A DNA stretch of 59,099 bases, from the IMG/VR virus record IMGVR_UViG_3300036799_000025, positions 1-59,099 of that record; one strand, written 5' to 3'. The notes below the pieces were generated by a model, which saw only the letters and a list, made by a program, of their open reading frames with translations, had not been told where the DNA came from and ran no database searches. This document shows positions 1 to 59,099 of the stretch, in pieces. This DNA comes from a virus. Its lineage: Duplodnaviria > Caudoviricetes. A program made the position numbers and the translations under genes. How positions within the stretch are numbered: the first letter of the stretch is position 1; every line of letters starts with the position of its first letter.

Positions 1-127
1 GCGCTGAATTGCTCAGCGACGTCGCGCAGCGTCTTCTGTGCGCCCTGTGGTGCGATTGCGATTGCGGTCATCGTCGATCTCCTGACTGAGTGAGCTGTCG
101 CTCGCGCTGCCGTCGTGCAGCGTCGAG
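1..127. repeat. Terminal direct repeat, copy 1 (assembly overlap of a circular contig)
   Basis: 1-127 is identical to 58973-59099; 127 is a common assembler k-mer length. Confidence 0.95.
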
Positions 128-128
128 C
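100..128 (-). promoter_or_regulatory. Leader hairpin with ACGACG loop (copy 1)
   Basis: Minus strand GCTCG-A-CGCTGC-ACGACG-GCAGCG-CGAGC in the leader of the DUF932 gene, across the circular junction. Confidence 0.7.
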
Positions 129-146
129 ATCGAACAACGTCCTAGG

Positions 147-176
147 AACCTACAGTGCCTAGCTTGCGCTCGCAAG
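147..176 (-). promoter_or_regulatory. Sigma70-like promoter P1 with palindrome over -35
   Basis: TTGCGA-N17-TAGGTT; CTTGCG-AG-CGCAAG overlaps -35. Confidence 0.75.
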
Positions 177-191
177 TACTAGGCTAAGTGC

Positions 192-476
192 TTACGGCGC
201 ATCGACTAGGCAGTGCGCTTTCTGCCAGCTCGCAGGCTCGTCGCCGCAAGGGCAGAGGCGCTGTACAGGGCGCGGGTTCATGAGCGCGCCGGTCGACTCG
301 TCGACGTCGTACTCGATCGCGTCGCCGATCTTGAGCTTCGCCGGTGCCCACTGCTTCAGCGTCGCGGGGTGCATCTTCAGGACGAAACCTGAGTCGAGTA
401 AGAAGGCGAAGCGCGGCGGCTTGCCTGCCGCGACGCTGCTCATCGCTTTGATCTTTCCAGTCTTCGTGATGCTCAT
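192..476 (-). CDS. Hypothetical protein, possible cold-shock/OB-like fold with C-terminal CxC
   Basis: TGKIK...LKIGDAIEYDV resembles the CSD pattern; coupled to the upstream gene. Confidence 0.45.
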   Translation of the reverse strand: MSITKTGKIKAMSSVAAGKPPRFAFLLDSGFVLKMHPATLKQWAPAKLKIGDAIEYDVDESTGALMNPRPVQRLCPCGDEPASWQKAHCLVDAP

Positions 477-1060
477 CGGATTTCCTCATACGTGTCGATT
501 GTTGGCGTGACGCTGCCGTCAGGATTTCCCATCTCCGGTTTGATCTGATACTGCCACGGCTCGCCGATGAGAAAGCGCTCATGACCGCAGACGATGATCA
601 CAGCAAGCATTGTCCTGCGCACCTGCTTCAGATAGTCGCGCAGCGCGCCGTCTTGTCGCCACACGCCTTTGTGTTTCGGCTTCACGTGCACGACGATGCA
701 GCGATCGTCAGGCGCGGCCTGCACTTCGAGCACAGCCTTCACCTTGTCAGGTCGCAGCTCAGGCGGCAGGATGCCGAGCCGCCAGAGGCACGACCACGTC
801 TTGCACACGCCAGGACGCGTCTCGTAAATCGCGCAGCCGCGATGATTGCGTGAGTGCTCGCACGTCTCGCCGTACTTCGTGTCGACGCCGTCTTCGTGCA
901 CGGCGAGAATCGAGCAGCACATCGAGCACGCGCCGCATTCGCGACCAGGCCAGAGCACAGGCAGCACGTGGCCTGTCGGCAGCATGCGACCCTTTGTCTC
1001 TTCTGTGATGCGCGGCGTCTCATTGATATGCAGAATGATCGGCAACTCGCGCGTGTTCAT
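473..1060 (-). CDS. YkgJ-like cysteine-cluster (CxxCxxCC) metal-binding protein
   Basis: RECGACSMCC...CEH...GCAIYETRPGVCKTWSCLW. Confidence 0.75.
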   Translation of the reverse strand: MNTRELPIILHINETPRITEETKGRMLPTGHVLPVLWPGRECGACSMCCSILAVHEDGVDTKYGETCEHSRNHRGCAIYETRPGVCKTWSCLWRLGILPPELRPDKVKAVLEVQAAPDDRCIVVHVKPKHKGVWRQDGALRDYLKQVRRTMLAVIIVCGHERFLIGEPWQYQIKPEMGNPDGSVTPTIDTYEEIR

Positions 1061-1287
1061 GCTGCTGCCTCATTGATTGCTGTCACGACTTCGTCGAGCG
1101 AATCGACTGCACTTTCGAGCGCATCAGCGGCTGCCTCTGCCTGCTGTCCGCGCTCGCTATCACGCAGTCCGTCAGGCATCGCTTCGTATGCTTCCTGCTC
1201 TTCATCGCGCAGCGCTTCGAGCTGCGTCTTCAGGTTCTCTAGCTCGCCGCTGATCTTCGCGAGCGCAGCGCGTCGCTTGCTATTCAT
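1057..1287 (-). CDS. Conserved small helical phage protein
   Basis: MNSKRR...EEQEAYEAMPDGLRDSERG pattern common in phages; start reassigned to 1287. Confidence 0.7.
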   Translation of the reverse strand: MNSKRRAALAKISGELENLKTQLEALRDEEQEAYEAMPDGLRDSERGQQAEAAADALESAVDSLDEVVTAINEAAA

Positions 1288-1762
1288 CGGCGCTCGCCTG
1301 CGCTTCGAGCTGCGCGACCGCGCGCTTCGCAGCCGCGCGACGCGGTTTGAGTATCTGCTCAATCTTCTCGCTCGTGACACCTGCCTGCTTGAACGCATCT
1401 TCCCACGAATCGCCGTGCCCACGCACGCCGATCGCGAGCGCGCCGATCGCACCGACAGCGTAGCGTCGCCGCCAGCAGATGCCTTGCAACTCCTGCTCGC
1501 GAGTGCGCCACGCAGTGACAGCAGCCGTACGCTCACGCCATGCGTTGCGAAACTCACCAAGCGTCATCTCATCGCTATATCCCTGATCGAAGATCGACAC
1601 CATGACGGGTTTCTTCTCGCGCATCTCGTGTAGCTCTTTGAGCGCTGCTTTGCGCTGCTCAGGCGTCGATGCGCTGCGAGCGCCGCGATCTTCGACCCAC
1701 GGCTTGCTTGTGCTGAATGCGACGCGTGCGATCTGCAGCGCCTGTGCTCTCGTGATTCTCAT
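1280..1762 (-). CDS. Hypothetical protein
   Basis: Tiles with its neighbours in the operon. Confidence 0.6.
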   Translation of the reverse strand: MRITRAQALQIARVAFSTSKPWVEDRGARSASTPEQRKAALKELHEMREKKPVMVSIFDQGYSDEMTLGEFRNAWRERTAAVTAWRTREQELQGICWRRRYAVGAIGALAIGVRGHGDSWEDAFKQAGVTSEKIEQILKPRRAAAKRAVAQLEAQASADE

Positions 1763-1765
1763 CGC

Positions 1766-1975
1766 TCATGCCTCGCTTAGGTGCGCGCTCACGCGCAGGT
1801 AAAAGTCGCTCAAGCCTTCGTGCTCAGAGCGACTGAAAAGTTGTACACAACTCTCAGCACGCCGCTGTGCGTACGCGCGATGTTCGCTCGGATCGATACT
1901 GCTCTCGCGCGCATCCTTCAGAAAGCGACGCGCGCACTCATCGACCGTCTCGCCCCACAGGTTCTGCTCTCTCAT
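1766..1975 (-). CDS. Hypothetical protein
   Basis: ATGA-type overlap with the upstream gene. Confidence 0.55.
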   Translation of the reverse strand: MREQNLWGETVDECARRFLKDARESSIDPSEHRAYAQRRAESCVQLFSRSEHEGLSDFYLRVSAHLSEA

Positions 1976-2256
1976 CGGCCTGCGCTCTTCGTGTCGAGCG
2001 GCTGCATTGCACGCTCGCTGCGCGCGAGTGCGCTCCTGATGCTAGCAAGTCGTCTCTGCAGCTCGTCGAGATATTGCGCGATCTCGTGCGGCTTGAGACG
2101 CTCGATCAAGCTGCTCAGCTCAACGAAGAGCTGCTCAGCGCGATCACGATGCCACGACGAAAGCGCGATGCCAATCTCTTCAGCATCTGAGTCAAAGAGA
2201 TCGCGTAGGATGCGCTCTTGGTCGTGCGCGTGCTGCTGCTGTTGTAGGTCGCTCAT
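1972..2256 (-). CDS. Hypothetical coiled-coil protein
   Basis: Likely start MSDLQQ at 2256, just after the upstream stop. Confidence 0.55.
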   Translation of the reverse strand: MSDLQQQQHAHDQERILRDLFDSDAEEIGIALSSWHRDRAEQLFVELSSLIERLKPHEIAQYLDELQRRLASIRSALARSERAMQPLDTKSAGR

Positions 2257-2258
2257 CG

Positions 2259-2699
2259 TTATCTCGCTCGCTTGATCGTGAGATGAAAGACTTCGCCACT
2301 CTTGAGCGTCACGACTAGGCCTTCGTCGCTCGTTAGCATGCCTGCGCTGCTGTATGACTCGATAAAGCGCGTAGTCAGCGCTGCTGTGCTGTGCCGCTCC
2401 CACGCAGTGCGCAGCAGGTGCGTGAGCTGATGCGAGAAGTCGTCTTCTGTGAGGCTCTCATCGTTCCAGATGACTGTCTCGCCTTCGAGCAGGCGCTGCA
2501 CACATGAGCGGCAGTGATTGCCCTTCAGGTGCTGCTCTGTCTCGTCATCGAGCCAGCTCGCGAGCGTGCCGCAGACCGTCTGCCCGCAGCCCTGACAGGT
2601 GACTACGTCGAGCGTGCACGAGCAGTACATCGCGCCCTGCTCGACGCGATGCTCGATGCCTTGCGCCTGCGTGATCGTGACTGCCTTCTCTGTGCTCAT
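2259..2699 (-). CDS. Hypothetical Cys-rich (Zn-binding) protein
   Basis: CSC..CQGCG..CG..CRSC; C-terminal GMLTSDEGLVV motif. Confidence 0.6.
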   Translation of the reverse strand: MSTEKAVTITQAQGIEHRVEQGAMYCSCTLDVVTCQGCGQTVCGTLASWLDDETEQHLKGNHCRSCVQRLLEGETVIWNDESLTEDDFSHQLTHLLRTAWERHSTAALTTRFIESYSSAGMLTSDEGLVVTLKSGEVFHLTIKRAR

Positions 2700-2724
2700 T
2701 GCTCTGCTCTCTCGTGAAAGGTGA

Positions 2725-3024
2725 TTAGGTCGAGAAAAAGACGAAGATGCTCTTCTCGTCGTAACTGCGCTCGATCGTGTAGCGCAGACCGAGCACGCGC
2801 GCGAGTGCGTCGATCTTGTTCTCTCTGAAGTACTCTGCCGCCTGCCCGAGCGGGTCCGTCGTCTCGTCGAAGCCGTCAGGATAGCCGACGCGGATACGTC
2901 GCTCGCCGATCACTTCGACGTCTGACAGCATGCCTGAGCGCTGCAGCATGCCCTTCGCGCGCTCAGCGAGCGTCTGTCGTGCGATCTGCATATCGAAGCG
3001 CGACGTCCAGTGTGCCTTAGCCAT
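2725..3024 (-). CDS. Hypothetical protein
   Basis: Start MAKAHW overlaps the upstream stop. Confidence 0.55.
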   Translation of the reverse strand: MAKAHWTSRFDMQIARQTLAERAKGMLQRSGMLSDVEVIGERRIRVGYPDGFDETTDPLGQAAEYFRENKIDALARVLGLRYTIERSYDEKSIFVFFST

Positions 3025-3391
3025 GACGCGCACCTGCACGAGTCGTGAAGCGGTGCAGCTCCTGCCCGTTATGCTCTGCATACGGCTGCTCACAGATCGT
3101 GCACCGCTCGCGCTCGATCTCCTGCTCGATCTGTGCGCCTTCGACGCGCTCGATCTCGTCACGCGACAGCGCGCTGCCGTCCTGATAGACTGCCGACCAT
3201 CCGGTGTGCGGCTCAGTGCTCAGCGCGATTGCTGCATACGAGCGCACGCGCTTCGACTCGCGCTCAGCGAGAACACGCGCGCCCTGCGACGTCGCACGCG
3301 TGCCGACAAACTGCAGGCGCACGCCGTTAAAGAATCGATCGCTCGGTCGATCGCGAGCAATCAAGCTCGCGACAGTGTAGACGATGTACAT
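3017..3391 (-). CDS. Hypothetical protein with C-terminal CxxC..H..H
   Basis: AGGAG RBS before MYIVY; CTICEQPYAEH...LH. Confidence 0.55.
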   Translation of the reverse strand: MYIVYTVASLIARDRPSDRFFNGVRLQFVGTRATSQGARVLAERESKRVRSYAAIALSTEPHTGWSAVYQDGSALSRDEIERVEGAQIEQEIERERCTICEQPYAEHNGQELHRFTTRAGARHG

Positions 3392-3413
3392 CTGCTGTGA
3401 TCTCCTGTCAGGG

Positions 3414-4193
3414 TTAGATGCGAACAAACTCGATGCGACCGTTGCCACCGCTGACGCGCTGCACCTTCATGCCGAGAGGCGTCAGCATCACGATCTGACC
3501 GCGAATCGAATTGAGCGCTGCGATCTCGCGCTGCAGCTCTGTCGAGAGCTTCGCGTGCCGATACGAGTGATCGACGGTCGTCGTCAGCGCGCGCTCGATC
3601 GCCCAAACGGCTGCGCGCTGCGCTGCTTCCTGATCGAGCAGCTCGCTGAGCTTCGACTCAGTCGCGAGCTTGTCGAGCTGCTCACCGAGCTGCTGCGCGT
3701 TGCGCTGCATCGAGTCAGCGACGCGATCGAGCGCCGCCTTCGCGTTCTGCATCATGCGCTCGCGCTTCGCTGATGCGGTCGACTGCAGCGTGTCGCGCTC
3801 TTGCGCGTCGAGCTGCGCATTACGAGCTGCGATCGAGCGACCGTTCTCGTCGACTTCGTCGCCGTCGTTCATGCCGTACGGCAGCGTCTCGACAAGGAAG
3901 AGATACTCGCCTGTGCTGAGATCGACGCCTTCGCACTCATCGTGAATGCGATTGACGATCTGCTCACCTTTCTCTGTCAGCAGGTCGATCACGATGCGAC
4001 CGCCCTTCGGGCCGCGCGTGACGATGAATTGCACGAGCCCTGCGCGCTGCAGCACGCGAAACGTGCGCGCATTGATCTTTGGCTGCTTGCGCGCTGCTGT
4101 CGTGTTGCCTGAGATCCTGCACAGCGCTTGCTGATGCAGGCGGCTGAGCGCAACGCGCTCGCGGATGATGTACTTGCGGGTCTCTGTCGTCAT
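3414..4193 (-). CDS. Hypothetical protein, winged-helix-like N-terminus plus coiled coil
   Basis: RTFRVLQRAGLV...LTEKG; first gene after P2. Confidence 0.6.
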   Translation of the reverse strand: MTTETRKYIIRERVALSRLHQQALCRISGNTTAARKQPKINARTFRVLQRAGLVQFIVTRGPKGGRIVIDLLTEKGEQIVNRIHDECEGVDLSTGEYLFLVETLPYGMNDGDEVDENGRSIAARNAQLDAQERDTLQSTASAKRERMMQNAKAALDRVADSMQRNAQQLGEQLDKLATESKLSELLDQEAAQRAAVWAIERALTTTVDHSYRHAKLSTELQREIAALNSIRGQIVMLTPLGMKVQRVSGGNGRIEFVRI

Positions 4194-4218
4194 TGTCTCT
4201 TCTCGCGTGAAGGATCAG

Positions 4219-4246
4219 TCAGTGCAGGTCGTCGTACCTGCACTGA
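4219..4246 (-). promoter_or_regulatory. Leader hairpin with ACGACG loop (copy 2)
   Basis: TCAGTGCAGGT-ACGACG-ACCTGCACTGA, perfect 11-bp stem. Confidence 0.75.
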
Positions 4247-4248
4247 GA

Positions 4249-4278
4249 AGTCTACGCTAGGCAGCTTGCGCGCGCAAG
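4249..4278 (-). promoter_or_regulatory. Sigma70-like promoter P2 with palindrome over -35
   Basis: TTGCGC-N17-TAGACT; CTTGCG-CG-CGCAAG. Confidence 0.75.
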
Positions 4279-4293
4279 TAGCCTCATAAGCGC

Positions 4294-4324
4294 AAGAAAG
4301 GCAGGCGATTAGCCTGCCCTTCCT
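4294..4324 (-). terminator. Intrinsic terminator
   Basis: GGCAGGC-TAATC-GCCTGCC followed by TTTCTT, after the DUF6011 gene. Confidence 0.65.
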
Positions 4325-4346
4325 GTGTCAGTTTGAGACTGTCGAG

Positions 4347-5123
4347 CTACTTCGTCGCGCAGATTGGGCCGATGCCGCTCTCGATCGACTCAGGGACGGT
4401 CAGCGTGCGACCACAGCGACCGCACCGGCCTTCGTGCCAGACTTCGACGCGCGCGTCTTCGAGATGCTTCATCAGCCACGAGAACGCGATCGCGCTCGGA
4501 GCGCTCGCAGCGACGCGCGACTTACGCGTGACGCGAAAGCCGTCGGCGAAGATCGTTCCGATATAGGCAAAGTCGCCTGTGTTGTCAGCGCCGTTGAGCA
4601 GCGAGACGAAGTAGACAGGCATCATGCCGGGGCGACACTTCGCAGGATCACTCTGCTGCACTTTGTACGTGAAGCGCGTCTGCGTCGCCTTCGAGCGCAC
4701 CGTAAAGATCGCGTTGCCTGCGAGGATGAAGCCTTTGCGCTTGCCTGCGGCGAGCTGACCGCGCATCGTGCGCGCGATCGCGTCGCTGTCTTCGATCGCG
4801 ACGAAGGCGCTCTCGACCTGCGCAGGCGCTGCTGCGACAGGCGCTGCAGCCTTTGCGATCGCGTGTGCTGACGTGTAGTGCGCGAGTACTGCCGCTTCGA
4901 TCTGCTTGCGCGCCTTAACCTCGAAGGCGAGATCGTCGAGCGAGTCGAAGAATTGACGCACTGTCTCGCTGGCAACGGCACCCATGTTTTTTTCGAGCAG
5001 CTCGATGATCTCGACGATCAGCGCGTCGAGCTGCTGCTGCTGCTGCTGCGTGCGCGTGTCGGCCTTCGTGTCGACTGCGATCTCGCCGTCGAGCATTGAG
5101 TGAAACTCTGCGAGCGTCATCAT
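4347..5123 (-). CDS. DUF6011-type Zn-ribbon phage protein
   Basis: AGNAIFTVRS..RFTYKV..WHEGRCGRCGRTLTVPESIESGIGPIC. Confidence 0.8.
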   Translation of the reverse strand: MMTLAEFHSMLDGEIAVDTKADTRTQQQQQQLDALIVEIIELLEKNMGAVASETVRQFFDSLDDLAFEVKARKQIEAAVLAHYTSAHAIAKAAAPVAAAPAQVESAFVAIEDSDAIARTMRGQLAAGKRKGFILAGNAIFTVRSKATQTRFTYKVQQSDPAKCRPGMMPVYFVSLLNGADNTGDFAYIGTIFADGFRVTRKSRVAASAPSAIAFSWLMKHLEDARVEVWHEGRCGRCGRTLTVPESIESGIGPICATK

Positions 5124-5124
5124 G

Positions 5125-5331
5125 TTAGCGGCCCTCTGTGCTATGCACTGTTGCGACGTGTTCGCGCCACGCCTTGTACGCCTCTGCGCGAGGATTCGGG
5201 AAGCAACTCGCGTCAAAATCCATCGACGCCCACCCGCACTCACAAGACACGTGATACGAGATGCGAGCGCCAAGACACTTGTGCCCCTTTGTCGTCTTCG
5301 CCGGTCGTGCTGTCGTTGCTGCCATCGTCAT
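5125..5331 (-). CDS. Small hypothetical protein (CxCG..H)
   Basis: First ORF after P3; GAAGAGG RBS. Confidence 0.55.
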   Translation of the reverse strand: MTMAATTARPAKTTKGHKCLGARISYHVSCECGWASMDFDASCFPNPRAEAYKAWREHVATVHSTEGR

Positions 5332-5356
5332 CCTCTTCGCGTAGGGTGTCTCTCTC

Positions 5357-5381
5357 GTCGGTCGCCGTCGTGCGACCTGAC
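5357..5381 (-). promoter_or_regulatory. Leader hairpin with ACGACG loop (copy 3)
   Basis: GTC-A-GGTCGC-ACGACG-GCGACC-GAC. Confidence 0.7.
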
Positions 5382-5384
5382 TAC

Positions 5385-5414
5385 ATTCTATAGCACGCAG
5401 CTTGCGCGCGCAAG
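5385..5414 (-). promoter_or_regulatory. Sigma70-like promoter P3 with palindrome over -35
   Basis: TTGCGC-N17-TAGAAT; CTTGCG-CG-CGCAAG. Confidence 0.8.
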
Positions 5415-5723
5415 TAGCGTAGCTAAGTCGTTGAGCAGCAAGCGACTGCCCGCTCGTTTCTGAGAGCAGCTCTCGCGAGAAGATGTCTTTTCAGGACAGG
5501 CGCAGGCGTTCGATCGTTCTTAACTAGGCATGAGACTGCGATGCACCTGCTGCCGCGTGCCGATGATCGTGCCGACGCGACGCCCGTATCCTATCCTGAG
5601 CTTCTGTGATCGCTGTCGCGCACTCCTGCGCGGCGAGCTGCGCGCAGACGAGCCTAGAATCGACGCTGCGCCGTCTAGCGTCGCGCCTGAGCGCCTATCG
5701 CTGATCTGACGAACGAGTAAGCG

Positions 5724-6530
5724 TCAGCAGCCTGGCAGGCGTTTACGCAGCAGCGCAGGGCAGGGCAGCGGCTTCGAGATCGCGATGCCGACGAAGGCGC
5801 GCGTCGCAGGGCTCGGGTACGTGAAGCCGTAGCCGAAGACGAGCGCGAGGCGCGAGCGATCGTCAGCGCTGAGATCCTTCTGCAGCACAGGCGACGGGCA
5901 CACGCTCGGATCCTGCTCGACGTGATCGATCGAGATCTTCGCCCAGCTCACGAGTGAGTCTGTGCCTGGCCGCACCGGCTTCACAGTCAGCAGCGCGTCG
6001 CGCATGCCGAGCGTGTTGACCTTCGACGTACAGCCGAGACGTGCGCTGAGCCCGAGCGGGTCAAGCGCGAAGCTCGCGTCGATCGCGCCCTTCGCAGGCG
6101 GCGCAGGCAGCGTCACGACGGCGTGCATCGTGTACGGCTCCTGTCTGACGTCGAAGACGCCGAGCCGTGCACCTGATGCGGTCTCAGTCGTCGCACTCGA
6201 TGCTTCACGATTCGTCACGCTCTTCGTTGCGATCAGCACGCCGAGCTGCAAGAGCGCGCGGCGCATCTCGCCTAGCTCCTGATCGTACGCATCGCTCTTC
6301 TGTACCTGCTGAATCACGAGCCGCTGAAAGCCGAGCGAGTCGCGCAGCATGCGCGTCGTGTCAGCCTTCGCGCGCGCCTGCGATTCTGCGAGCGCTGCAC
6401 GTGCATCAGCGCCGCGTGCGGTGTTCAGCTCCCACATCAGGCCAATGATCACGACGAGCATGATCACAAACGCGATCGCGATCGTCTTTGCCGTCGTGCT
6501 CGACGTCGCCCACGCTGTGCGCACCGACAT
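5724..6530 (-). CDS. Putative spanin-like lysis protein
   Basis: N-terminal TM, coiled coil, C-terminal amphipathic beta-hairpin; last gene of the lysis cassette. Confidence 0.5.
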   Translation of the reverse strand: MSVRTAWATSSTTAKTIAIAFVIMLVVIIGLMWELNTARGADARAALAESQARAKADTTRMLRDSLGFQRLVIQQVQKSDAYDQELGEMRRALLQLGVLIATKSVTNREASSATTETASGARLGVFDVRQEPYTMHAVVTLPAPPAKGAIDASFALDPLGLSARLGCTSKVNTLGMRDALLTVKPVRPGTDSLVSWAKISIDHVEQDPSVCPSPVLQKDLSADDRSRLALVFGYGFTYPSPATRAFVGIAISKPLPCPALLRKRLPGC

Positions 6531-28292: not shown

Positions 28293-28410
28293 GAGTGGCC
28301 TCTGACGTCCCTGACGTCACGAGTAAAGGTCTGTCGAGCGATCACGAGCGGCAGCGCACCTTGCGTCTGCAACCCGTCGGCGCATGCGCGCCCTTAGAGC
28401 TACCCTGCCG

Positions 28411-28440
28411 AGTGTATCGTATGCGCTTGCGCCGCGCAAG
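28411..28440 (-). promoter_or_regulatory. Promoter P4 with palindrome variant
   Basis: TTGCGC-N17-TACACT; CTTGCG-CGG-CGCAAG. Confidence 0.65.
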
Positions 28441-28645
28441 GTTCACGCCTATTCATCAAGCGCACCACTGAAACTCGATTCATCTGCGGCGATGACTAGC
28501 TACGCTGAGCACAGGCGTAAGTAGCGGGCTCTCACGAGCTGCCAGCTTGCCAGACGGCTTCACGAGTGTAGCACTATGCCGCTTCGGGGCCGCGCTCGAC
28601 TTCACAAGAGTCGACCGGCCCCTTCGTCTTGTCCTAACGATGAGC

Positions 28646-29622: not shown

Positions 29623-29802
29623 TCACACTCCTGATCGAATCAGCTCGCGCGTGTCGAGTCGCGCATCGAGTAAGCGCTTGATCAGCGTCGTGCATTCGCG
29701 TCGTGCCGTCTCGCGTGCGTGCACGACGTCGCTACTCTCGATCTGTGCGTCAGCGCGCAGCGCGTCAGCACTTTGCGGTGTAAGCGAGTGATCACGTGGC
29801 AT
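29623..29802 (-). CDS. 59-aa ORF missing from the ORF track (MPRDHSLTPQSADALRADAQIESSDV...KRLLDARL)
   Basis: Translated by hand; fills the gap between genes; resembles small phage head-module proteins. Confidence 0.55.
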   Translation of the reverse strand: MPRDHSLTPQSADALRADAQIESSDVVHARETARRECTTLIKRLLDARLDTRELIRSGV

Positions 29803-29876
29803 CAGCAGGGCCGTCGTAAGCCAAGCAGCAGAGAGGAAGCGCTACTGACGCCACGCGATCACGTCGATCGCTTACA
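29779..29876 (-). promoter_or_regulatory. Long hairpin sequestering the start codon at 29802
   Basis: 21-bp stem (29788-29808 with 29842-29862, three G.U pairs on minus) plus a 9-bp basal stem. Confidence 0.7.
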
Positions 29877-30260: not shown

Positions 30261-32261
30261 TCAGATCTTCGGCAATCGACGCGGGAAAGCTCCTGGCTGC
30301 GGTAGGCCTGTCTTTGCAGGCTGATTCGGTGCGCCGCGCGTCGGTGCGCCTGTCGGCGCGCCTGTCGGCGGCGCTCCCGGCGCTGCCGTGATTGGTCGAC
30401 CTTGCGCGTCGAGCTGCTGCATCGGCGGCGCTGCGGCGAGATCCTTTACCATCTTCGCGATGATCGCTTGCTCATCGTCTGACAGGTGCGCTAGCTCAGC
30501 GGCTGCCTCTTCTGACAGGCCCGCGCTGATCCAGAAGCCGTAGACTTCCGCCTTCAGCTTCTGTACTTCGAGATCGCCGCCGTCTTGCTCCATGATGCGC
30601 TGCAGCTCAGCGTCAGGATCTGCGACGTCTGAGCGCTCCATGATCGTCTGACGCGACATATAGCCTGCCTGTCCTGCTGCGATATCGTTTGCACGCTCCT
30701 GCGTCGAGAGCGGGCCCGTATCGATCGCGCAGTTAAAGCTCGCGCGCAGCGTCTTTGTGTACTTGCCTGGGACGTTCGCGAACACTTCCGCCCACGCCAT
30801 GACGGTCTCGATCAGCCAGCGTCCTGTGCGCTCGACCGGCGTCTGCGTGAGCTTCAGCGATTGCTCAAAATCAGCACGCGACTGCTCGCGACTCTTGCCG
30901 CTCGGCGTCGCTTCGCCTGTAATGAGAATGTGTGCCTGATCGCACTCTTCGAGAATGTCACGATACGCTTCGCGCTTCGCTTCGATCGACGCCGTCGGCG
31001 GCACCGGCGGTCGATTGACGACGCTCGGCGACGTGACGTGCTTGTTTCCTGTCGCGTCGTCGTACTCGATAGGCGCAATCCATTGCGTGACGCCTGCGCC
31101 GCGCACGTACGGCTCAGGCACCCACTTGCGTGCTGTGCCTTCGCCCTCGAAGTGTCCCGGCATCGCGCCGCCGAGGATGATCTGCTCAAGAAAGCCGCCT
31201 GTCGTCACGTTTCGCGGGATCATCGAATTCGCGAAGTTCAGCGCCTTCTGCGCGTCGCGCACCTGATGCGAGATGAACGGCTCGCGTGTCAGCTCGCTCA
31301 TGAGCAGACGCTTCCCAAGGTCGAAGCGCGCCTGCACCTGACCGCCCGGGTTCGCATCAGTCGTCGCCTGCTGTGAGCTGCTCGTGCCGACAGTCGCGAG
31401 CACAGTCATGTTGCCGTCATCGAGATACGTCAGCTCGACGCGCATCTGCGCGCTCTGCTGCTGATCGATGCGTGCCTGCACATTGCAGACGCCGATCTCG
31501 TCGAGTCGCGTCGGGTCTTCGTACACGTGCGCCATTTCGACTTCGGGCACGTCGATATGGATCTTCGACAGCGCGTCTTCGATATCGCCTGCTTTGACCT
31601 GCAGCACTTTGCGCGACGACGCCGAGCCGTCTTCTGCGACGACTTCCTCAGTCGAGAGCAGTGCGGCAGGGACATAGAGGCGCATCACAGCACGTCCTGG
31701 CGCTGAGATCTTGCGCAGCGCGCCGTTCGCGGTCATGCCGCCGCCGACGTTCTGCGTGTCGATCATCGTATTCGTGCCGCTGATCGGCATCGAGCCGCCT
31801 GAATACAGCAGCTTGCGCGTCGCGTCCTGAAAGCGCTCGATCGAGCGGACGTTATTCCACCACGTTGTCAGGAAGGCTTCAGCTTCGTCGATGAGCGTCT
31901 GCTCTTCCTTCGTCGGCTTTTCGCCTTCCTTTAACGCGCGCTTGACAGACAGCCCCCATGTCGGCTCGCGACCGACGACGCTCGCGACGTGCCGCTCGAT
32001 GACTTCTTTGATGACGTTGCGTGCGGTGAAGCCGCGCTCGATCTCTGCGACTGACGCTGATGCTGTCTCGTCAGTCCAGTCAGGCCACGGGCCGATCCAG
32101 CCTTCGCCGCCTTGCCAGTGATCGCCGAGATAGAAGAGGCGATTCTTCGCGAGCGATCGCATGTCGAGTCCTGCTGCGACGACCTGCATCGCTTCTGTCT
32201 GCCCCCACTGCGAGAACGGCTTCAGCGGCCAGCTTCCGATTGCCGTGCCTGGAAACGTCAT
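30261..32261 (-). CDS. Portal protein
   Basis: FYLGDHWQGGEGWIGP..NVIKEVIERH; directly after TerL. Confidence 0.85.
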   Translation of the reverse strand: MTFPGTAIGSWPLKPFSQWGQTEAMQVVAAGLDMRSLAKNRLFYLGDHWQGGEGWIGPWPDWTDETASASVAEIERGFTARNVIKEVIERHVASVVGREPTWGLSVKRALKEGEKPTKEEQTLIDEAEAFLTTWWNNVRSIERFQDATRKLLYSGGSMPISGTNTMIDTQNVGGGMTANGALRKISAPGRAVMRLYVPAALLSTEEVVAEDGSASSRKVLQVKAGDIEDALSKIHIDVPEVEMAHVYEDPTRLDEIGVCNVQARIDQQQSAQMRVELTYLDDGNMTVLATVGTSSSQQATTDANPGGQVQARFDLGKRLLMSELTREPFISHQVRDAQKALNFANSMIPRNVTTGGFLEQIILGGAMPGHFEGEGTARKWVPEPYVRGAGVTQWIAPIEYDDATGNKHVTSPSVVNRPPVPPTASIEAKREAYRDILEECDQAHILITGEATPSGKSREQSRADFEQSLKLTQTPVERTGRWLIETVMAWAEVFANVPGKYTKTLRASFNCAIDTGPLSTQERANDIAAGQAGYMSRQTIMERSDVADPDAELQRIMEQDGGDLEVQKLKAEVYGFWISAGLSEEAAAELAHLSDDEQAIIAKMVKDLAAAPPMQQLDAQGRPITAAPGAPPTGAPTGAPTRGAPNQPAKTGLPQPGAFPRRLPKI

Positions 32262-32425
32262 CGCTTTCCTCTCAGGAGTTTGATGAGCGCACGCTTACGC
32301 TCTGCCTCGCGCGTATCGCGCAGCGCACGACATCGCTGCTTCTCACGTCGCGCACGACGCTCTAATTCGAGATCACGTGCGCGCGTCACTTCGCGCCAGA
32401 AGGCGGAAACCTGCTCGTCAGTCAT
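32258..32425 (-). CDS. 55-aa Arg-rich ORF missing from the ORF track
   Basis: MTDEQVSAFWREVTRARDLELERRARREKQRCRALR...; ATGA overlap with the portal gene. Confidence 0.55.
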   Translation of the reverse strand: MTDEQVSAFWREVTRARDLELERRARREKQRCRALRDTREAERKRALIKLLRGKR

Positions 32426-43276: not shown

Positions 43277-44140
43277 TCAGTCCGTTGCCCGTGTGACGAG
43301 CGTCATGCCGTACTCGTCGATCGGCTGCTCGAAGATGGCTGGATCAATGTCTGTGCGTCGACGCAAACGATTGCGTTTGAACGGTCGATAATCGACGTGA
43401 TGCTGCCAGCGACCAAACTTGCGCGAGACACGCACGACGTCAGGATGCTTTGCTGCTAGCTCCTGCGCCATTGCCAGCCGACCGTCAAACTCAGTGCCGT
43501 CCGGGTTGAGCTTCTTTACATAGTGCGGCGTATTGCCGCCGTTCAGCGTCATCGTCACAGCCTTGCCGATGAGGAAGGTATTAAAGAGCACAGTGCAGTA
43601 GCCGTCTTTCAGGAAGCGCAGCGCGAGATCTGTGTCGTCATTGTAGAAACCCTCGAAGCGATGCGGCACGCGGTTGTCGAGCAAATAGCACGAGTACACG
43701 CGCGTGTTGAGAATGAATGGCGGGATCACGTCACGATGCTTCGCAAAATATTTGTAATTCGGTCCTGCCATTGGCACGTTCTCATAACGATCGACGAAGT
43801 CTTCCATCGCGCGCAGCGTGCCGCTGCTGTGCACGCGCAAGATCAGATTGCGATTGAATCGCAAGAGCCCTCTGATGTTGTCGTCCATCTGCCAGTGACG
43901 CGCAGCGCCGCGCTCGATCGCGTGCTCCCAAATGAAATTGCGCGCAGCGACGAGCCCGCGATCACGCCACGGCAGCGTGACAATCTTGCGCGCATCGATG
44001 ACGGCTGCATATGCGTCATACTCTTGCGGCTCGACGACGATCGTGTACGGCAGCTCAAGCGCTTCGAGCGTCTTGCTCGTGAAGCGCGTGTCAGCGCGAC
44101 CTTTCGACGGGATATAGATCGGGTATCGCGGCGCGAGCAT
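43277..44140 (-). CDS. TET/JBP-associated (TAGT, GREB1-like) GT-A glycosyltransferase
   Basis: YPIYIPSKGRA, VVEPQEY, ARNFIWEH, WQMDDNI, NTRVYSC, YNDDTDL, GGNT, RWQHHVDY. Confidence 0.85.
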   Translation of the reverse strand: MLAPRYPIYIPSKGRADTRFTSKTLEALELPYTIVVEPQEYDAYAAVIDARKIVTLPWRDRGLVAARNFIWEHAIERGAARHWQMDDNIRGLLRFNRNLILRVHSSGTLRAMEDFVDRYENVPMAGPNYKYFAKHRDVIPPFILNTRVYSCYLLDNRVPHRFEGFYNDDTDLALRFLKDGYCTVLFNTFLIGKAVTMTLNGGNTPHYVKKLNPDGTEFDGRLAMAQELAAKHPDVVRVSRKFGRWQHHVDYRPFKRNRLRRRTDIDPAIFEQPIDEYGMTLVTRATD

Positions 44141-44142
44141 CG

Positions 44143-44862
44143 TTATGCATCCTCATCGTCGTCGTTCTCATCGTCGTCCTGCGCCGCCGCGTCATCGCTC
44201 TCGACATAGGTCTTGTCAGCGTGCACCTTGCGCACCTGCTCAGGATACCAAAAATAATGCGTCTTCAGCGTGATCTCGCGCCCGAGCAGCTTCGCGAAGG
44301 CTGCAATCGCCTCGTCATTCTCGAAGTGCACAGTCAAGTGATGATACGACCGCTCATCGCTGACCTGATACTCAGGCATTCCAGTCCACGTCTGCGAGTA
44401 GTCGCCTGTCAGATGCTGATAGAGCGTCGTGACGTCGTCGTCGTCATAGCCAGTGCCCTTCAGGTTGCCTTGCTCCTGCTGCGCGCGCAGATAGTCGAGC
44501 AAGAGCGCGTCGTTATAGCCGCCTAGCTCTGTGATGCGATTATCTGCCGCGACGATACGTGCGCCGGTCGCGTCATCGCAGTCAATCCACAGCACATTGA
44601 CGCGCTTCACCTTCAGACGACGCAGCGCTTCGCGCGTGCCATGCCCGCCGAGGATGCGACGCGATGACGTCTGCACGCGCACTGCGCCGTAGACGCCGTT
44701 CTCACGCATCGACTCAACGATCGCGCCGATATCGTGATCCTTCGGGTTCCCTGGCCAGTCCTGCAGCGTCTTGAGATCGACGTCTGCTTCGTACGACTGC
44801 GGCAAGAATTTGATGATCTCGCCGAGCTGCGCTGCTGCCTTCTTTGCGTCGGTCGCAGTCAT
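44143..44862 (-). CDS. ParB N-terminal domain fused to a WxGMPE domain
   Basis: PGNPKDHD..ILGGHGT..ADNR; WTGMPEY..VHFEN..FAKLLG..IT.KT..WYP. Confidence 0.8.
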   Translation of the reverse strand: MTATDAKKAAAQLGEIIKFLPQSYEADVDLKTLQDWPGNPKDHDIGAIVESMRENGVYGAVRVQTSSRRILGGHGTREALRRLKVKRVNVLWIDCDDATGARIVAADNRITELGGYNDALLLDYLRAQQEQGNLKGTGYDDDDVTTLYQHLTGDYSQTWTGMPEYQVSDERSYHHLTVHFENDEAIAAFAKLLGREITLKTHYFWYPEQVRKVHADKTYVESDDAAAQDDDENDDDEDA

Positions 44863-49965: not shown

Positions 49966-50416
49966 CGTCGTCACTCCGGACAAGGCGTGGCATCGCGATC
50001 GTGCTCAGTGGCTGCATCGCGTTGACGCGCGCGATCGCGCGATCGAGTCGCTCGCCGCCATCGACAGCGCCGTGCAGCGAGCGATCGTGATTGTCGTCGT
50101 ACGTGAAGCCGTTCCAGAAAGGCATCTGCCCGCACGTCGTGCACTTCAGCTCAGGCAGATAGTCGAGTCCTGCCTTGCCTTGCAGCGCCTGCATGTAGCA
50201 CTGCGTTGGCTCGCGCTGTGGCGCGAAGCTGCGCGCTGCGATCACGCGATCGCGCGGGTCGACGTCGCCTGCACGCCGCGCTGCCTGCAAGCGCCTGACG
50301 TCCTGCAGCAGGCGCTGATCGCGCTCGATCTGCTCGCTCGTGCGCCCGTCAGGGATCACGTACGGCTTGACGGCGAAGCGCTTGTATCGCTCGTCGTTTG
50401 TGATCTCGTCACTCAT
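49955..50416 (-). CDS. Hypothetical protein (CxxC)
   Basis: Follows the initiator gene. Confidence 0.5.
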   Translation of the reverse strand: MSDEITNDERYKRFAVKPYVIPDGRTSEQIERDQRLLQDVRRLQAARRAGDVDPRDRVIAARSFAPQREPTQCYMQALQGKAGLDYLPELKCTTCGQMPFWNGFTYDDNHDRSLHGAVDGGERLDRAIARVNAMQPLSTIAMPRLVRSDDDDD

Positions 50417-51524
50417 GATGCACTCCGTTGCCGTTGAGCGGTGCGTCGCCTGCCAGTATCGCCTTGTACTTCTCTGCCGTCGGGTGCGGCTCGCCTGCGC
50501 GATAGCGTTTGCTCAAGTTGGCGAAGCGCTCGACGTTGCCGCGATTGCGCAGCAAGAATTCAATGTCATCGTGCTTCGTGCCGTCTTTCTCGCCGTTGAC
50601 GTATTGATCCTTCGCTGCGCCATCGAAGGCAAAGAGTAGCTCGCCGAGATTATCGCCGTTCTCACGCAATCGCGCGACGATGACGCGCTCGCGCTTGTCG
50701 TCGACGAGCGCCTTTGGGTGATTAAACTTTGCCATCCAGTAGCCGACGACGATACCGGCGAGCAGTCGTCGCTGCTGCTCGCGCGTGATGCGTGTGCGCG
50801 TGCCCTGTGCGACTTCGTCGAGCACTTGCGCGAGCTGCGCGCGAATTGCAGGCAGCGTGCGAGGGCCGAGTACGACAGGCAGCTCAGGCGTCTTGCGTCG
50901 CGACGTCGTGACGAGCGCTGTCGAGATCTCCTGCTCGTCAGGCTCGATCGTCATCTCGAAAGCGCTAGCAGGCGCTAGCAAGTTGCTAGCAGAATCGCAT
51001 AGCTCTTGATCTTGATCTTTTGTAGTTGTAGTGGATCTAAGATCTTTACTACTAAGATCTTTACTAACTAATATGGGCAAAGTGCTAGCATCTGCTAGCA
51101 AGTTGCTAGCAGCTTCCCTATTTTCGCGAGGTTCCTGATAGCGAGTTGCTAGCAATTCGCCGCTTTCTGGCGGTTTCAAGTCTGACGCTGTGCTAGCATC
51201 TGCTAGCACTTTGCTAGCACTTTCTGCTAGCACGTTGCTAGCAGAATGCTCGATTACGCGAAAGAAGCCGCTGTCGACGAGTGCCTGCAGGTCGATCTTT
51301 GAGCGCGCTCTGAGCTGTCTCGCAATGAAGTCTGCATCGAGCGGGATCTTGTTATCGAGCTTCGCTGCAAGCAGCCAAAGCTGCATGAGATGCCCGCGTG
51401 CGAGATCAGACAGTTTCAGAAACTCGTAACTTTCGAGCAGGCGAATAAAGAGACGCACGAAGGTCGGCGCGCGATCCTTGTAGTGCAGCAGTGCGTCATA
51501 GCTCGTTGCCTCTAAGTACTTCAT
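50409..51524 (-). CDS. Replication initiator (lambda O-like)
   Basis: HYKDRAPTFVRL..LMQLWLLA wHTH N-terminus; internal iterons; C-terminal DIEFLLR. Confidence 0.75.
   Translation of the reverse strand: MKYLEATSYDALLHYKDRAPTFVRLFIRLLESYEFLKLSDLARGHLMQLWLLAAKLDNKIPLDADFIARQLRARSKIDLQALVDSGFFRVIEHSASNVLAESASKVLADASTASDLKPPESGELLATRYQEPRENREAASNLLADASTLPILVSKDLSSKDLRSTTTTKDQDQELCDSASNLLAPASAFEMTIEPDEQEISTALVTTSRRKTPELPVVLGPRTLPAIRAQLAQVLDEVAQGTRTRITREQQRRLLAGIVVGYWMAKFNHPKALVDDKRERVIVARLRENGDNLGELLFAFDGAAKDQYVNGEKDGTKHDDIEFLLRNRGNVERFANLSKRYRAGEPHPTAEKYKAILAGDAPLNGNGVHHE
50961..51245. repeat. Putative replication origin: 12 GCTAGCA iterons plus an AT-rich tract
   Basis: GCTAGC at 50964, 50974, 50985, 51084, 51094, 51105, 51148, 51192, 51202, 51213, 51226, 51237; AT-rich about 51005-51075. 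Confidence 0.8.
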
Positions 51525-55847: not shown

Positions 55848-56279
55848 TCAGCGCGCTGCTGCTGTGCTAGTGCTGCTTGCAGCATCTCCTGCAGCAAGCC
55901 CGCGTGCGCGATTGATACGAGCAATAACGGTCGGGTTGCTCTCATCGTCGTCGTCATGAACAAGGTCAGGCCACGCGTCGAGCCGTGGCGTGTGCGTGAG
56001 ATCGCAGAAGCGATCGACGATCATATGCGCGCGCGATCGCTTCGTCGTCGGCACGTCGAGATAGAGCCCGCGCGTGACGATGTCACTCACGGCCTGTCGC
56101 GAGATCTCGATACCGTCTTCGTTGAGCGACTCCGCGATCGTCGTGATCGTGACGCCCTTCTCGCGCATGATGCGCACGCGATTCGCCTGCGCAGGCGTCA
56201 GCGGCGTCGGCGCGCGCCTCGCGACTTTCGGGCTCGTCTTCGTCTGCTGCGTTCTGCTGCGACTACTCCTGCGTGGCAT
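55848..56279 (-). CDS. HTH DNA-binding protein with Arg-rich N-terminus
   Basis: GVTITTIAESLNEDGIEISRQAVSDIV. Confidence 0.7.
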   Translation of the reverse strand: MPRRSSRSRTQQTKTSPKVARRAPTPLTPAQANRVRIMREKGVTITTIAESLNEDGIEISRQAVSDIVTRGLYLDVPTTKRSRAHMIVDRFCDLTHTPRLDAWPDLVHDDDDESNPTVIARINRARGLAAGDAASSTSTAAAR

Positions 56280-56292
56280 AGCTCTGCTCCTG

Positions 56293-56565
56293 TTAGGTAG
56301 TAACTTGCGTCTCAAAGGTACGTGTGCGAAGAATGCGCGTAAAGGCGCGTCGTCGCAACTCCTGCAGCATTTTCAGCTCGTGCTCGTAATGCGTCAGCGA
56401 GCGCAGGTCGCTGAGATAGCAATTCTGCCAACCTGGGCGCTGCTCGCTGATCTCGCGATTCGCTCGCAGGCGATACTTGTGCGCCTGCGCGGTGCGCGTC
56501 GCTTCCCACTGATCGAGAAAGGCGACGAGCTGCTCGTCGAGCGACAGCGCCTTAATGCGCGCCAT
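56293..56565 (-). CDS. Hypothetical protein
   Basis: MARIKAL start. Confidence 0.5.
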   Translation of the reverse strand: MARIKALSLDEQLVAFLDQWEATRTAQAHKYRLRANREISEQRPGWQNCYLSDLRSLTHYEHELKMLQELRRRAFTRILRTRTFETQVTT

Positions 56566-57088
56566 CTTTCCACCCGACGGTGATGCCTTTCCTGCGATCA
56601 TCTGCCTTGCGCTTCGACGTCTCTGCGGCACGTCGCCCGCCGCGCTTGCGTGATGCAGCGTCAGCGTCGAGTCGCGCTAGCTCTGCGCGTGCTGCACTCA
56701 TGACGTCCTGCAGCGTCGACACGCGCTTCGCCTTCTCAGCGCGATACAGCGCGATCGCTGCAGCGCCTGCGACGTCGCTCACGCACGGCGCTCGCTTCGG
56801 CGCAAGAAAGTACAGCATCTCAGCCGTCTGCGTGTACCGGCTGCTGCGCTTCTTGATCGCGACGCCTTCGTCGACGAGCGTCGTGAGCGTCTGCGCAACG
56901 GACTGCATCGCGAGTCCTGTGCGCTCAGCGATCGCTCGCGCACTGAGCCCGACTGCGCGCTGACGATCGACGTGATCGAGATACGAGATCACGAGTGCTC
57001 TGCGCTCGTCGCGTCGCTTGCGCATCTGCTCGCGACTCCACGGCGCGTCAGCGCTGTCGTCGAGCTGAATGAGTCTACTCGTCGTCAT
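56552..57088 (-). CDS. Winged-HTH transcriptional regulator
   Basis: GLSARAIAERTGLAMQSVAQTLTTLVDEG. Confidence 0.75.
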   Translation of the reverse strand: MTTSRLIQLDDSADAPWSREQMRKRRDERRALVISYLDHVDRQRAVGLSARAIAERTGLAMQSVAQTLTTLVDEGVAIKKRSSRYTQTAEMLYFLAPKRAPCVSDVAGAAAIALYRAEKAKRVSTLQDVMSAARAELARLDADAASRKRGGRRAAETSKRKADDRRKGITVGWKDGAH

Positions 57089-59043: not shown

Positions 59044-59099
59044 CGTCGATCTCCTGACTGAGTGAGCTGTCGCTCGCGCTGCCGTCGTGCAGCGTCGAG
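58973..59099. repeat. Terminal direct repeat, copy 2
   Basis: Identical to 1-127. Confidence 0.95.

Follow-up and report, generated by a model that had tools for sequence, protein, structure and literature searches.

Results

The phage genome analyzed here, IMG/VR record IMGVR_UViG_3300036799_000025 (Duplodnaviria; Caudoviricetes), was studied over its whole length of 59,099 nucleotides (nt), referred to below as the window. Three hairpins on its minus strand carry exactly the same hexaloop, ACGACG, and each of them follows one of three copies of a promoter-like module (P1, P2, and P3). Their stems turn over completely around an untouched loop, and selection therefore appears to act on both the pairing and the loop sequence. 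The variable stem around a fixed loop, put forward in the original prediction for this DNA, proved to be a real pattern tied to the three promoter copies, as judged from an alignment of five hairpins and from an 18-nt block common to the modules.

Sequence and fold of the three hairpins

Direct reading of the sequence confirmed the three hairpins and their ACGACG loops at the predicted positions (Table 1), and each is the minimum-free-energy fold. The upper stems are all perfect Watson-Crick stems of 6 bp, namely CGCUGC (P1), GCAGGU (P2), and GGUCGC (P3). In the P1 hairpin, 122->117 pairs with 110->105 around the loop 116->111, and a lower stem of 5 bp is set off by a bulged A. The P2 hairpin has a perfect stem of 11 bp, the upper 6 bp being formed by 4241->4236 with 4229->4224 around the loop 4235->4230 (z -3.8 against shuffled sequence). 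In the P3 hairpin, 5377->5372 pairs with 5365->5360 around the loop 5371->5366, and the lower stem is 3 bp long, again with a bulged A. The stems had been described as fully paired, which is true of the 6-bp upper stems but not of the extended stems of P1 and P3 with their bulged A. With respect to folding energy, two of the three hairpins were no better than shuffles (z -1.4 and -0.9). A partial copy of the P1 hairpin at 59072-59099 belongs to the terminal repeat.

Covariation and conservation in a relative

A pattern search of IMG/VR with the promoter block gave three loci, one of which was a true relative. This 22.7-kb IMG/VR fragment, G001, shows ~70-80% nucleotide identity in the shared genes and carries the P3 and P2 cassettes. 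Protein-guided scans of IMG/VR with the 443-aa protein, the DUF6011 protein (alone or as an alignment), TerL, and an alignment of the 94-aa ORF 192-476 returned G001 only, or nothing, and a scan of GTDB genomes with the DUF6011 alignment returned none. In the G001 P3 cassette, a single position differs from the window between the -10 hexamer and 6 nt past the hairpin, whereas the rest of the leader diverges. The G001 P2 stem reads GCAGGC/GCCUGC: the closing pair has changed from U-A to C-G around an unchanged loop, and in the lower stem an A-U pair of the window is flipped to U-A.

The three window hairpins and the two G001 hairpins were aligned. All 30 stem cells pair (100%), and five of the six pairs change on both sides. 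The covariation score was reached by none of 500 shuffles, and slid controls paired in 20-57% of their cells. None of the five hairpins departs from the others in its six loop bases or in the second pair, G-C; at the closing pair, one copy has U-A and the other four have C-G.

The genome-wide search for ACGACG flanked by a stem of at least 5 bp, which had been proposed together with a covariance model, was carried out and gave only three unique, promoter-linked sites. A covariance model built from the five hairpins scored these sites at 31.4-35.4 bits and the next best site at 20.5 bits (59 kb, both strands, filters off); training sites match such a model by construction, and the gap below them is what counts. 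A relaxed search allowing one loop or one stem mismatch found scattered sites only, none of them with a promoter block.

Chance controls and database searches

ACGACG occurs 194 times in the whole window against 96.3 +/- 9.0 in shuffles. This twofold excess over dinucleotide-shuffled sequence falls mostly on the coding (minus) strand and probably reflects codon usage (GAC, ACG, CGA) rather than a signal. Counting both strands, a flanking stem of at least 5 bp was found at 4 of the 194 sites, which represent three unique ones, the fourth (59077-59094) being the copy of 105-122 in the 127-nt terminal repeat. The three unique sites are exactly those downstream of the three promoter blocks (3/3); a further three ACGACG sites have stems of just 4 bp. 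It had been cautioned that ACGACG is common in this genome and that such hairpins might be equally frequent in shuffled sequence. The hexamer is indeed common, but ACGACG hairpins with a stem of at least 6 bp averaged 0.36 per dinucleotide shuffle, and three or more were reached in only 2 of 300.

Of 60 dinucleotide shuffles, 50 had some hexaloop that recurred at least three times on one strand, and two hexaloops occurring three times each were counted in a GC-rich phage unrelated to this one. Because such triples arise so readily, loop sharing by itself is not significant. The significance lies in the co-location with the promoters, the covariation, and the conservation in the relative.

Rfam gave no match at the gathering score for the whole window, and positions 1-6000 at E <= 1 gave only an unrelated match (2241-2348). 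A metagenome scan for the promoter block plus the loop yielded five stretches, none with the hairpin when inspected by eye, which were taken as chance matches. The reads of one DNA run, the probable source sample, gave the source contigs only, with no informative variants at the hairpins, and a search for RNA runs that contain positions 1-6000 found none. In the first 50 kb of Brevundimonas phage Polewnik, which has a DUF6011 homologue, there were zero ACGACG hairpins. A literature search judged by titles and abstracts found no relevant work combining ACGACG, hairpin, and phage; for conserved-loop hairpins at phage early promoters it found only work on N4, T4, phiEco32-like phages, HK022, and Xp10.

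Promoter-like modules and their palindrome

The 18-nt promoter block AGCTTGCGCNCGCAAGTA (+ strand) has exactly three copies in the genome. On the sense strand it contains a perfect 14-bp palindrome, CTTGCG(C/A)GCGCAAG (163-176, 4265-4278, and 5401-5414), which overlaps the -35 hexamer and the spacer; the P1 -35 lies inside CTTGCGAGCGCAAG (176->163) and that of P2 inside CTTGCGCGCGCAAG. In each of the five aligned modules (three from the window, two from G001), CAAG is followed at a distance of exactly 10 nt by a TAnnnT hexamer, and ~15 nt upstream of the block there is a CTTAG box in P1 and P3 and CTTAT in P2. Their conservation, the 17-nt spacer geometry, and their position ahead of a Shine-Dalgarno (SD)-ATG pair suggest that P1-P3 are promoters. 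The predicted +1 was placed 7 nt after the -10.

A dimeric DNA-binding protein may use the -35 palindrome as its operator, which would coordinate transcription of the three early units. Candidate binders are the early helix-turn-helix (HTH)-like proteins encoded at 3414-4193 (recognized by eye), 56552-57088, and 55848-56279, which would suit the palindrome better than RNA. A related 15-bp palindrome, CTTGCGC-C-GCGCAAG (+ strand), was noticed at 28426-28440 in a 353-nt gap of the structural region (28293-28645). On the sense strand, TAnnnT follows its TTGCGC by 17 nt; an ACGACG hairpin does not accompany it. It may be a fourth promoter or an operator of a different class.

Position of the hairpins in the leaders

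The loop begins 29 nt after CAAG in four of the five modules (P2, P3, and both from G001), and the predicted +1 falls one nt before the upper stem in those four. In P1 this distance is 46 nt, with 17 extra nt separating promoter and hairpin. Within the window the hairpin thus sits at about the predicted start site in two of the three units. The interval that separates the start codon from the last (3') base of the upper stem is 33, 30, 34, 30, and 34 nt in the five copies (P1, P2, and P3 first). The start codons used are ATG 71->69 for P1, ATG 4193 for P2, and for P3 likely the second ATG (5325), since the SD abuts the first. Because the spacing to the ATG is constant while the promoter spacing of P1 shifts, the hairpin appears to track the ribosome-binding region and not the promoter.

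The leaders have in common a box, CUCACGCGAGAGGA. Pairing of its pyrimidines with the SD may create a second hexaloop mini-hairpin, with the loop ACGCGA in four of the five copies and AGUCAG in one.

The hairpins were also considered as terminators or attenuators. The sequences after them, CGAGCGAC, ACUGACUG, and GACGAGAG, have no U run, and the terminator scan listed none of the hairpins, so this identity was rejected. A kissing-loop partner was sought as well: the sense strand contains no CGUCGU hexaloop hairpin with a stem of at least 6 bp.

Table 1. Positions of the hairpins, promoter-like modules, and genes discussed in the text
Feature	Position	Strand	Remarks
P1 leader hairpin	100..128	-	GCUCG-A-CGCUGC [ACGACG] GCAGCG-CGAGC, 128->100
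P2 leader hairpin	4219..4246	-	UCAGUGCAGGU [ACGACG] ACCUGCACUGA, 4246->4219
P3 leader hairpin	5357..5381	-	GUC-A-GGUCGC [ACGACG] GCGACC-GAC, 5381->5357
Promoter-like module P1	147..176	-	-35 TTGCGA 175->170; -10 TAGGTT 152->147; predicted +1 near 140
Promoter-like module P2	4249..4278	-	-35 TTGCGC 4277->4272; -10 TAGACT 4254->4249; predicted +1 near 4242
Promoter-like module P3	5385..5414	-	-35 TTGCGC 5413->5408; -10 TAGAAT 5390->5385; predicted +1 near 5378
Possible second mini-hairpin, P1 leader	77..92	-	CUC [AGUCAG] GAG; 3' arm is the SD core
Mini-hairpin equivalents	4198-4213 (P2), 5332-5347 (P3)	-	loop ACGCGA in both
Intrinsic-terminator-like hairpin	4293..4325	-	14-bp stem, U-rich tail UUUCUU; between DUF6011 gene and P2; z -6.2
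Open reading frame (ORF) of 94 aa	192..476	-	ends 15 nt before P1 -35; possible OB-like fold
DUF6011 gene, 258 aa, C-terminal domain	4347..5123	-	between P3 and P2; PF19474, E 9e-14; phrog_20259
First gene of P1 unit, 443 aa	57712..59043	-	phrog_1362 (unknown function); reached over the circular junction
RecT	53418-52084	-	recombination gene, after P1 unit start
Large terminase	34102-32453	-	late region
Major head protein	26680-25580	-	late region
Tail genes	end at 5724	-	last of the late genes, upstream of P3

Candidate binding proteins

Three ORFs had been named as possible binders. The one at 192-476, called CSD-like, has no Pfam match and only three relatives at E <= 1e-9 among 1.84 billion representative proteins. 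Its AlphaFold2 model is a five-stranded barrel with one helix (mean pLDDT 76). When the model was compared with the PDB by Foldseek, OB folds were best (IF1, ligase OB domains, and PriB; E 0.016-0.1), none of them at or below 0.001, and in the Atlas the CSD/S1 clusters appeared as leads with scores below the 0.9 threshold. The label thus survives in part: the predicted model is OB-like, but with no Pfam match and a best E of 0.016 it offers a weak lead at the level of the fold. A 103-aa homologue of this ORF (P0006; 78% identity over 72% of the query) was found on 20 metagenome contigs. As the longest of these, a JGI contig, measures 59.9 kb, the phage has a second near-full-length relative.

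The ORF at 55848-56279 does have the arginine-rich N terminus for which it had been picked, followed by a resolvase-type HTH (HTH_7, E 0.0063, below the cut-off); given this weak HTH match, DNA binding seems at least as likely as RNA binding. The third, ORF 32258-32425, is a late-region gene, because it sits between the terminase gene and the gene taken as portal.

Both phages keep the DUF6011 protein (window and G001 versions 79% identical), whose gene has a hairpin on either side. Nothing was found in print under the name DUF6011. ORF68 (5125-5331), the first gene after P3, was considered as an analogue of N and rejected, since G001 lacks it and has P3 immediately ahead of the DUF6011 gene, there the first gene of that unit. 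In the window, ORF68 encodes a Cys/His-rich product of 68 aa; G001 (L013) has an extra ORF of 147 aa (1875-2318) between the DUF6011 gene and P2. The cassettes appear to bound variable gene slots.

Genome setting

The window is a complete virus record with a G+C content of ~62%. Because its first 127 bases recur at its end as a terminal repeat, the phage genome as assembled is a circle of 58,972 bp. The minus strand carries essentially all plausible genes. In the order of transcription (descending coordinates), P3 (5414), the first module past the end of the late genes, is followed by small genes of unknown function, then by P2 (4278) and P1 (176). After P1 the order continues over the circular junction with the 443-aa gene (59043) and then regulator-like and recombination genes, RecT among them, before the large terminase, the major head protein, and the tail genes that end at 5724. 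We infer from position that the three sites are early, since they head the region after the late genes. Among 50,697 records of cultured phages there was no close relative, and comparing the first 8 kb with cultured phages at the nucleotide level yielded a single match, an irrelevant one of 84 nt. DUF6011 homologues occur mostly in phages of Caulobacter, Brevundimonas, Rhizobium, Sinorhizobium, and Agrobacterium, which makes an alphaproteobacterial host likely.

The terminator-like hairpin announced for the P3 operon is present, at about 4293-4325, although the terminator pattern scan left it unlisted. It has a counterpart in G001 (z -4.55) of identical architecture and different sequence, and P2 with its own hairpin directly follows it. 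A fourth ACGACG (29812-29817) had been described as a further small stem-loop. It forms no hexaloop hairpin and lies instead within the apical part of a much larger hairpin at 29780-29875 (- strand; stem ~30 bp, -61.8 kcal/mol, z -6.1). The latter lies in the intergenic gap after a 104-aa gene, which in turn follows the 666-aa gene taken as portal, and could serve the late operon as a strong terminator or as a site for processing of the RNase III type.

Two further regions were noted. Within ORF 50409-51524 (- strand, 371 aa), beside RecT, 10 of the 11 copies of TGCTAGCA, a palindrome, that the window has are clustered at 50960-51250, arranged like iterons in direct and inverted orientation. 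They probably mark an origin of replication located inside the gene of an initiator, the arrangement of lambda O/ori. At 43277-44140 (- strand) a TET-associated glycosyltransferase domain is encoded (PF20691, E 1e-40); the adjoining gene 44143-44862 (- strand) encodes a ParB-like protein with a methyltransferase-associated N-terminal domain. This gene pair may point to cytosine hypermodification of the phage DNA; among the neighbours of 43277-44862 that were scanned, none had a TET/JBP domain.

Discussion

Proposed function of the hairpins

It seems fairly probable that some trans-acting factor reads the ACGACG loop. Such a reader is reasonable because RNA hairpins are recognized by proteins in just this manner, through a constant loop and constant top pairs on a stem whose length, but not its sequence, is fixed. 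A constant centre with varying arms fits recognition of the loop on a single strand and is the opposite of a dimeric DNA operator; a classical DNA operator was ruled out by the same arrangement.

In the mechanism that we propose, the three hairpins would act in cis, as RNA, within the 5' leader of each of three early transcription units. Every unit would be a duplicated cassette made up of the palindrome overlapping a weak -35, the TAnnnT -10, the hairpin, and a leader that closes with CUCACGCGAGAGGA-N-AUG. One trans-acting factor, most likely a protein encoded by phage or host, would dock sequence-specifically on the ACGACG loop together with the unchanging second G-C pair and the upper stem of constant 6-bp length, and the three early mRNAs could then be treated alike. 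Once bound, the factor would govern how stable the early mRNAs are, how the first cistron is translated, or both, possibly helped by the weak mini-hairpin in which an anti-SD is paired to the SD. Control of transcription by way of the operator palindrome at the -35 would be a parallel layer, and the cassette and palindrome together suggest that early control is exerted at two levels, transcription and RNA. We infer that the modules are promoters with the start sites given, that the element is active as RNA, that something binds it, and what regulation results. Post-transcriptional control is, tentatively, the most likely mode. It was ranked slightly above antitermination because the hairpin lies at the extreme 5' end in four of the five copies, the ATG spacing is constant in all five, and read-through at the terminator would be pointless.

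A number of observations weigh against this interpretation. The P1 hairpin is separated by ~12-18 nt from the predicted 5' end, so that protection of the 5' end fails as a rule for all three, and the hairpin overlaps neither SD nor AUG, unlike classical translational operators. The lower stems of P2 and P3 extend upstream of the predicted +1, which hints either at a real start further upstream or at a role at the level of DNA. All stem pairs are Watson-Crick with zero G-U, and hence the pairs do not tell which strand is involved or whether RNA or DNA is the folded form. The five hairpins are paralogues and orthologues from two genomes and not independent samples. Measured against the E. coli consensus the promoters are weak, the -35 hexamers matching it at three of six positions and the -10 hexamers at three to five of six, and a promoter scan with the E. 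coli-type consensus called none of P1, P2, and P3. The mini-hairpin is weak: 81% of its cells pair against 66% in shuffled sequences (10 of 500 reach the value), and slid controls range over 44-75%. Among ~50 phage proteins scanned, none was recognized as belonging to an RNA-binding family. Finally, a co-directional genome with only three recognizable promoters is the layout in which processive antitermination is useful.

Alternative explanations

The last point leads to the nut-like alternative, in which a phage protein bound to the nascent loop would stay with RNA polymerase and cause terminators to be read through. An element at every early promoter copy recalls nut at lambda pL and pR, all genes are co-directional with no other promoter of this type in 59 kb, and a strong, conserved terminator-like hairpin lies downstream of P3. 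Recognition would moreover be loop-specific, as that of boxB by N is (excerpt of PMC2724277). Against this, boxA (CGCUCUUA, or the rrn form UGCUCUUUA; consensus from the same excerpt) was absent within 300 nt of all five leaders, where the best matches had 2-3 of 8 or 3-4 of 9 mismatches, a comparison subject to the reservation that the host boxA may differ; CGCTCTTA had zero exact copies on the sense strand of the genome. In place of a purine-rich pentaloop there is a loop of 6 nt. Searches for N, Q, and ANTAR families were negative, and in Pfam none of 30 proteins matched an N family, although arginine-rich motif (ARM) peptides are too short and diverse for profiles to exclude. Directly behind the single conserved terminator comes P2, which has a hairpin of its own, and expression of the downstream genes would therefore not require read-through at that point. 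The only other early-region candidate (3364-3335) lacks room in G001, where the gap is ~11 nt, and scanned terminator-like sites, Rho-dependent ones excepted, were no commoner than in shuffles. The constant spacing of 30-34 nt to the ATG would have no role. We regard this explanation as rather unlikely.

A hairpin could also act without any protein by shielding the 5' end of the mRNA from decay, the loop being kept for a favourable fold. The predicted +1 one nt before the upper stem in four of five modules would suit such a stabilizer, and T4 offers a precedent in the fixed CUUCGG and the 5' stabilization of its gene 32 mRNA (excerpt of PMC8948821). In P1, however, ~12-18 unpaired nt would precede the hairpin and leave the 5' end unshielded. 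The folding energies show no special bonus, two of the three window hairpins folding no better than shuffled sequence, and we know of no extra-stable loop property of ACGACG. Full turnover of the stem with all six loop bases fixed in five copies exceeds what stability needs. A protein-independent stabilizer is therefore improbable.

More improbable still would be an element acting as DNA, that is, an extruded hairpin or cruciform, or a single-strand hairpin, read by a polymerase or DNA-binding factor as an N4-type promoter or as a nicking or priming site. In P2 and P3 the full inverted repeats (9-11 bp) do extend beyond the predicted +1 on its upstream side, a lower-stem pair of P2 has flipped in compensation from A-T in the window to T-A in G001, and with Watson-Crick pairs throughout either strand could form the hairpin; the hairpin promoters of N4 are a precedent (excerpt of PMC4496689). 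On the other hand, no gene for a giant virion RNA polymerase was found, the largest ORF having 818 aa and no family match, the loop has 6 nt and not 3, and nothing is conserved as a start site downstream of the hairpins. The P1 element, 17 nt further from the promoter block with its ATG distance kept, is tied to the message.

That hairpin and loop have no function of their own and were merely carried along in a recently duplicated promoter cassette is scarcely credible: the cassettes are clearly paralogous (18-nt block, upstream CTTAG box, and leader box in common) and a hexaloop shared three times is common by chance, but the stems differ at five of six pairs and yet always pair, drift that deep would not spare six adjacent bases in five copies, and G001 keeps both hairpins while the surrounding leader diverges.

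Significance

Loop-specific hairpin-protein pairs such as N-boxB, MS2, and PP7 are textbook switches and widely used RNA-tethering tools. With some doubt, we entertain the possibility that the element represents a new class of phage leader-RNA operator, G(C/U)-ACGACG-(G/A)C, read by an unrecognized phage protein, for which the OB-like ORF 192-476 and the DUF6011 zinc-ribbon protein would be candidates. It would mark all early transcripts of a soil-phage lineage, probably of Alphaproteobacteria, and would serve as a coordinate switch by antitermination loading or by a timed shut-off of early mRNA. In function such an operator would parallel N-boxB or ANTAR, though it would be built from unrelated components. 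If this were true, a compact new pair would be at hand whose 18-nt hairpin is a new orthogonal tethering handle, and a first view would be gained of the layout of early gene expression in this uncharacterized phage lineage. The constraint, seen in two genomes of uncultured phage, is well supported, whereas the mechanism is a proposal.

Comparison with known systems

The boxB hairpin consists of a 5-bp stem and a purine-rich pentaloop with a GNRA-like fold. N reads it by loop-specific recognition of the hairpin (excerpt of PMC2724277). The phage element resembles lambda nut in being a small hairpin just after each early promoter, in its loop specificity, and in the coordinate control of early units that it would allow. 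It differs in its 6-bp stem, the hexaloop ACGACG, the fixed ATG spacing, the missing boxA, and the lack of a recognized ARM-type N homologue. With no boxA within 300 nt, a hexaloop in place of a pentaloop, and no N, Q, or ANTAR family found, membership in the lambda-type nut/boxB group was given up on the features tested.

The targets of ANTAR proteins (EutV, NasR, and AmiR), two hexaloop hairpins with stems of at least 3 bp joined by a short linker, have a similar architecture: they too have short stems and hexaloops, specific loop and top pairs, and A at loop position 1, and a possible second hexaloop mini-hairpin lies 8-15 nt downstream here. The defining bases of their loops are A1 and G4, with a linker of 5-12 nt in E. 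faecalis eut (excerpt of PMC3369931), and in actinobacteria pairs of hexaloop hairpins recruit ANTAR proteins for translational repression at ORF starts (excerpt of 10.1101/660928). G4 is absent from the phage element, loop 1 (ACGACG) having A4 and loop 2 (ACGCGA/AGUCAG) C4. The second hairpin is weakly supported here and overlaps the SD rather than a terminator, and there is no Rfam match. The ANTAR domain PF03861 was not found at E <= 1 in six frames of the phage genome. Despite the similar hexaloop architecture, identity with an ANTAR target was rejected by the A1/G4 rule.

Stem-loops at the 5' terminus stabilize bacterial mRNAs. The C(UUCG)G hairpins of T4 type share with the phage element the variable stems, the fixed hexamer, and the intergenic location, and in a 5'-leader position they can stabilize mRNA; a 5' CUUCGG hairpin stabilizes T4 gene 32 mRNA, and variable stems around a fixed CUUCGG occur in phage intergenic regions (excerpt of PMC8948821). 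Their hexamer, in contrast, is a thermodynamically exceptional tetraloop with its closing pair, and the element described here is confined to three early leaders and not scattered.

The N4 hairpins have a stem of 5-7 bp and a loop of 3 nt and are read as DNA by a giant injected virion RNA polymerase. As in N4, which has hairpin promoters (excerpt of PMC4496689), there are three early promoters here, each with a short inverted repeat. The phage element differs in its 6-nt loop and in that it tracks the start codon, not the promoter block.

The coat protein operators of MS2 and PP7 are similar in that the 5' side of the stem has a bulged A and a protein reads the specific loop. In those operators, of which that of PP7 has a hexaloop, the hairpin includes the start codon of the regulated gene, whereas here the bulged A is present in three of the five copies and the hairpin ends 30-34 nt before the AUG. 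Taken together, the element fits no described family among those tested and looks like a further form of the loop-specific leader hairpins.

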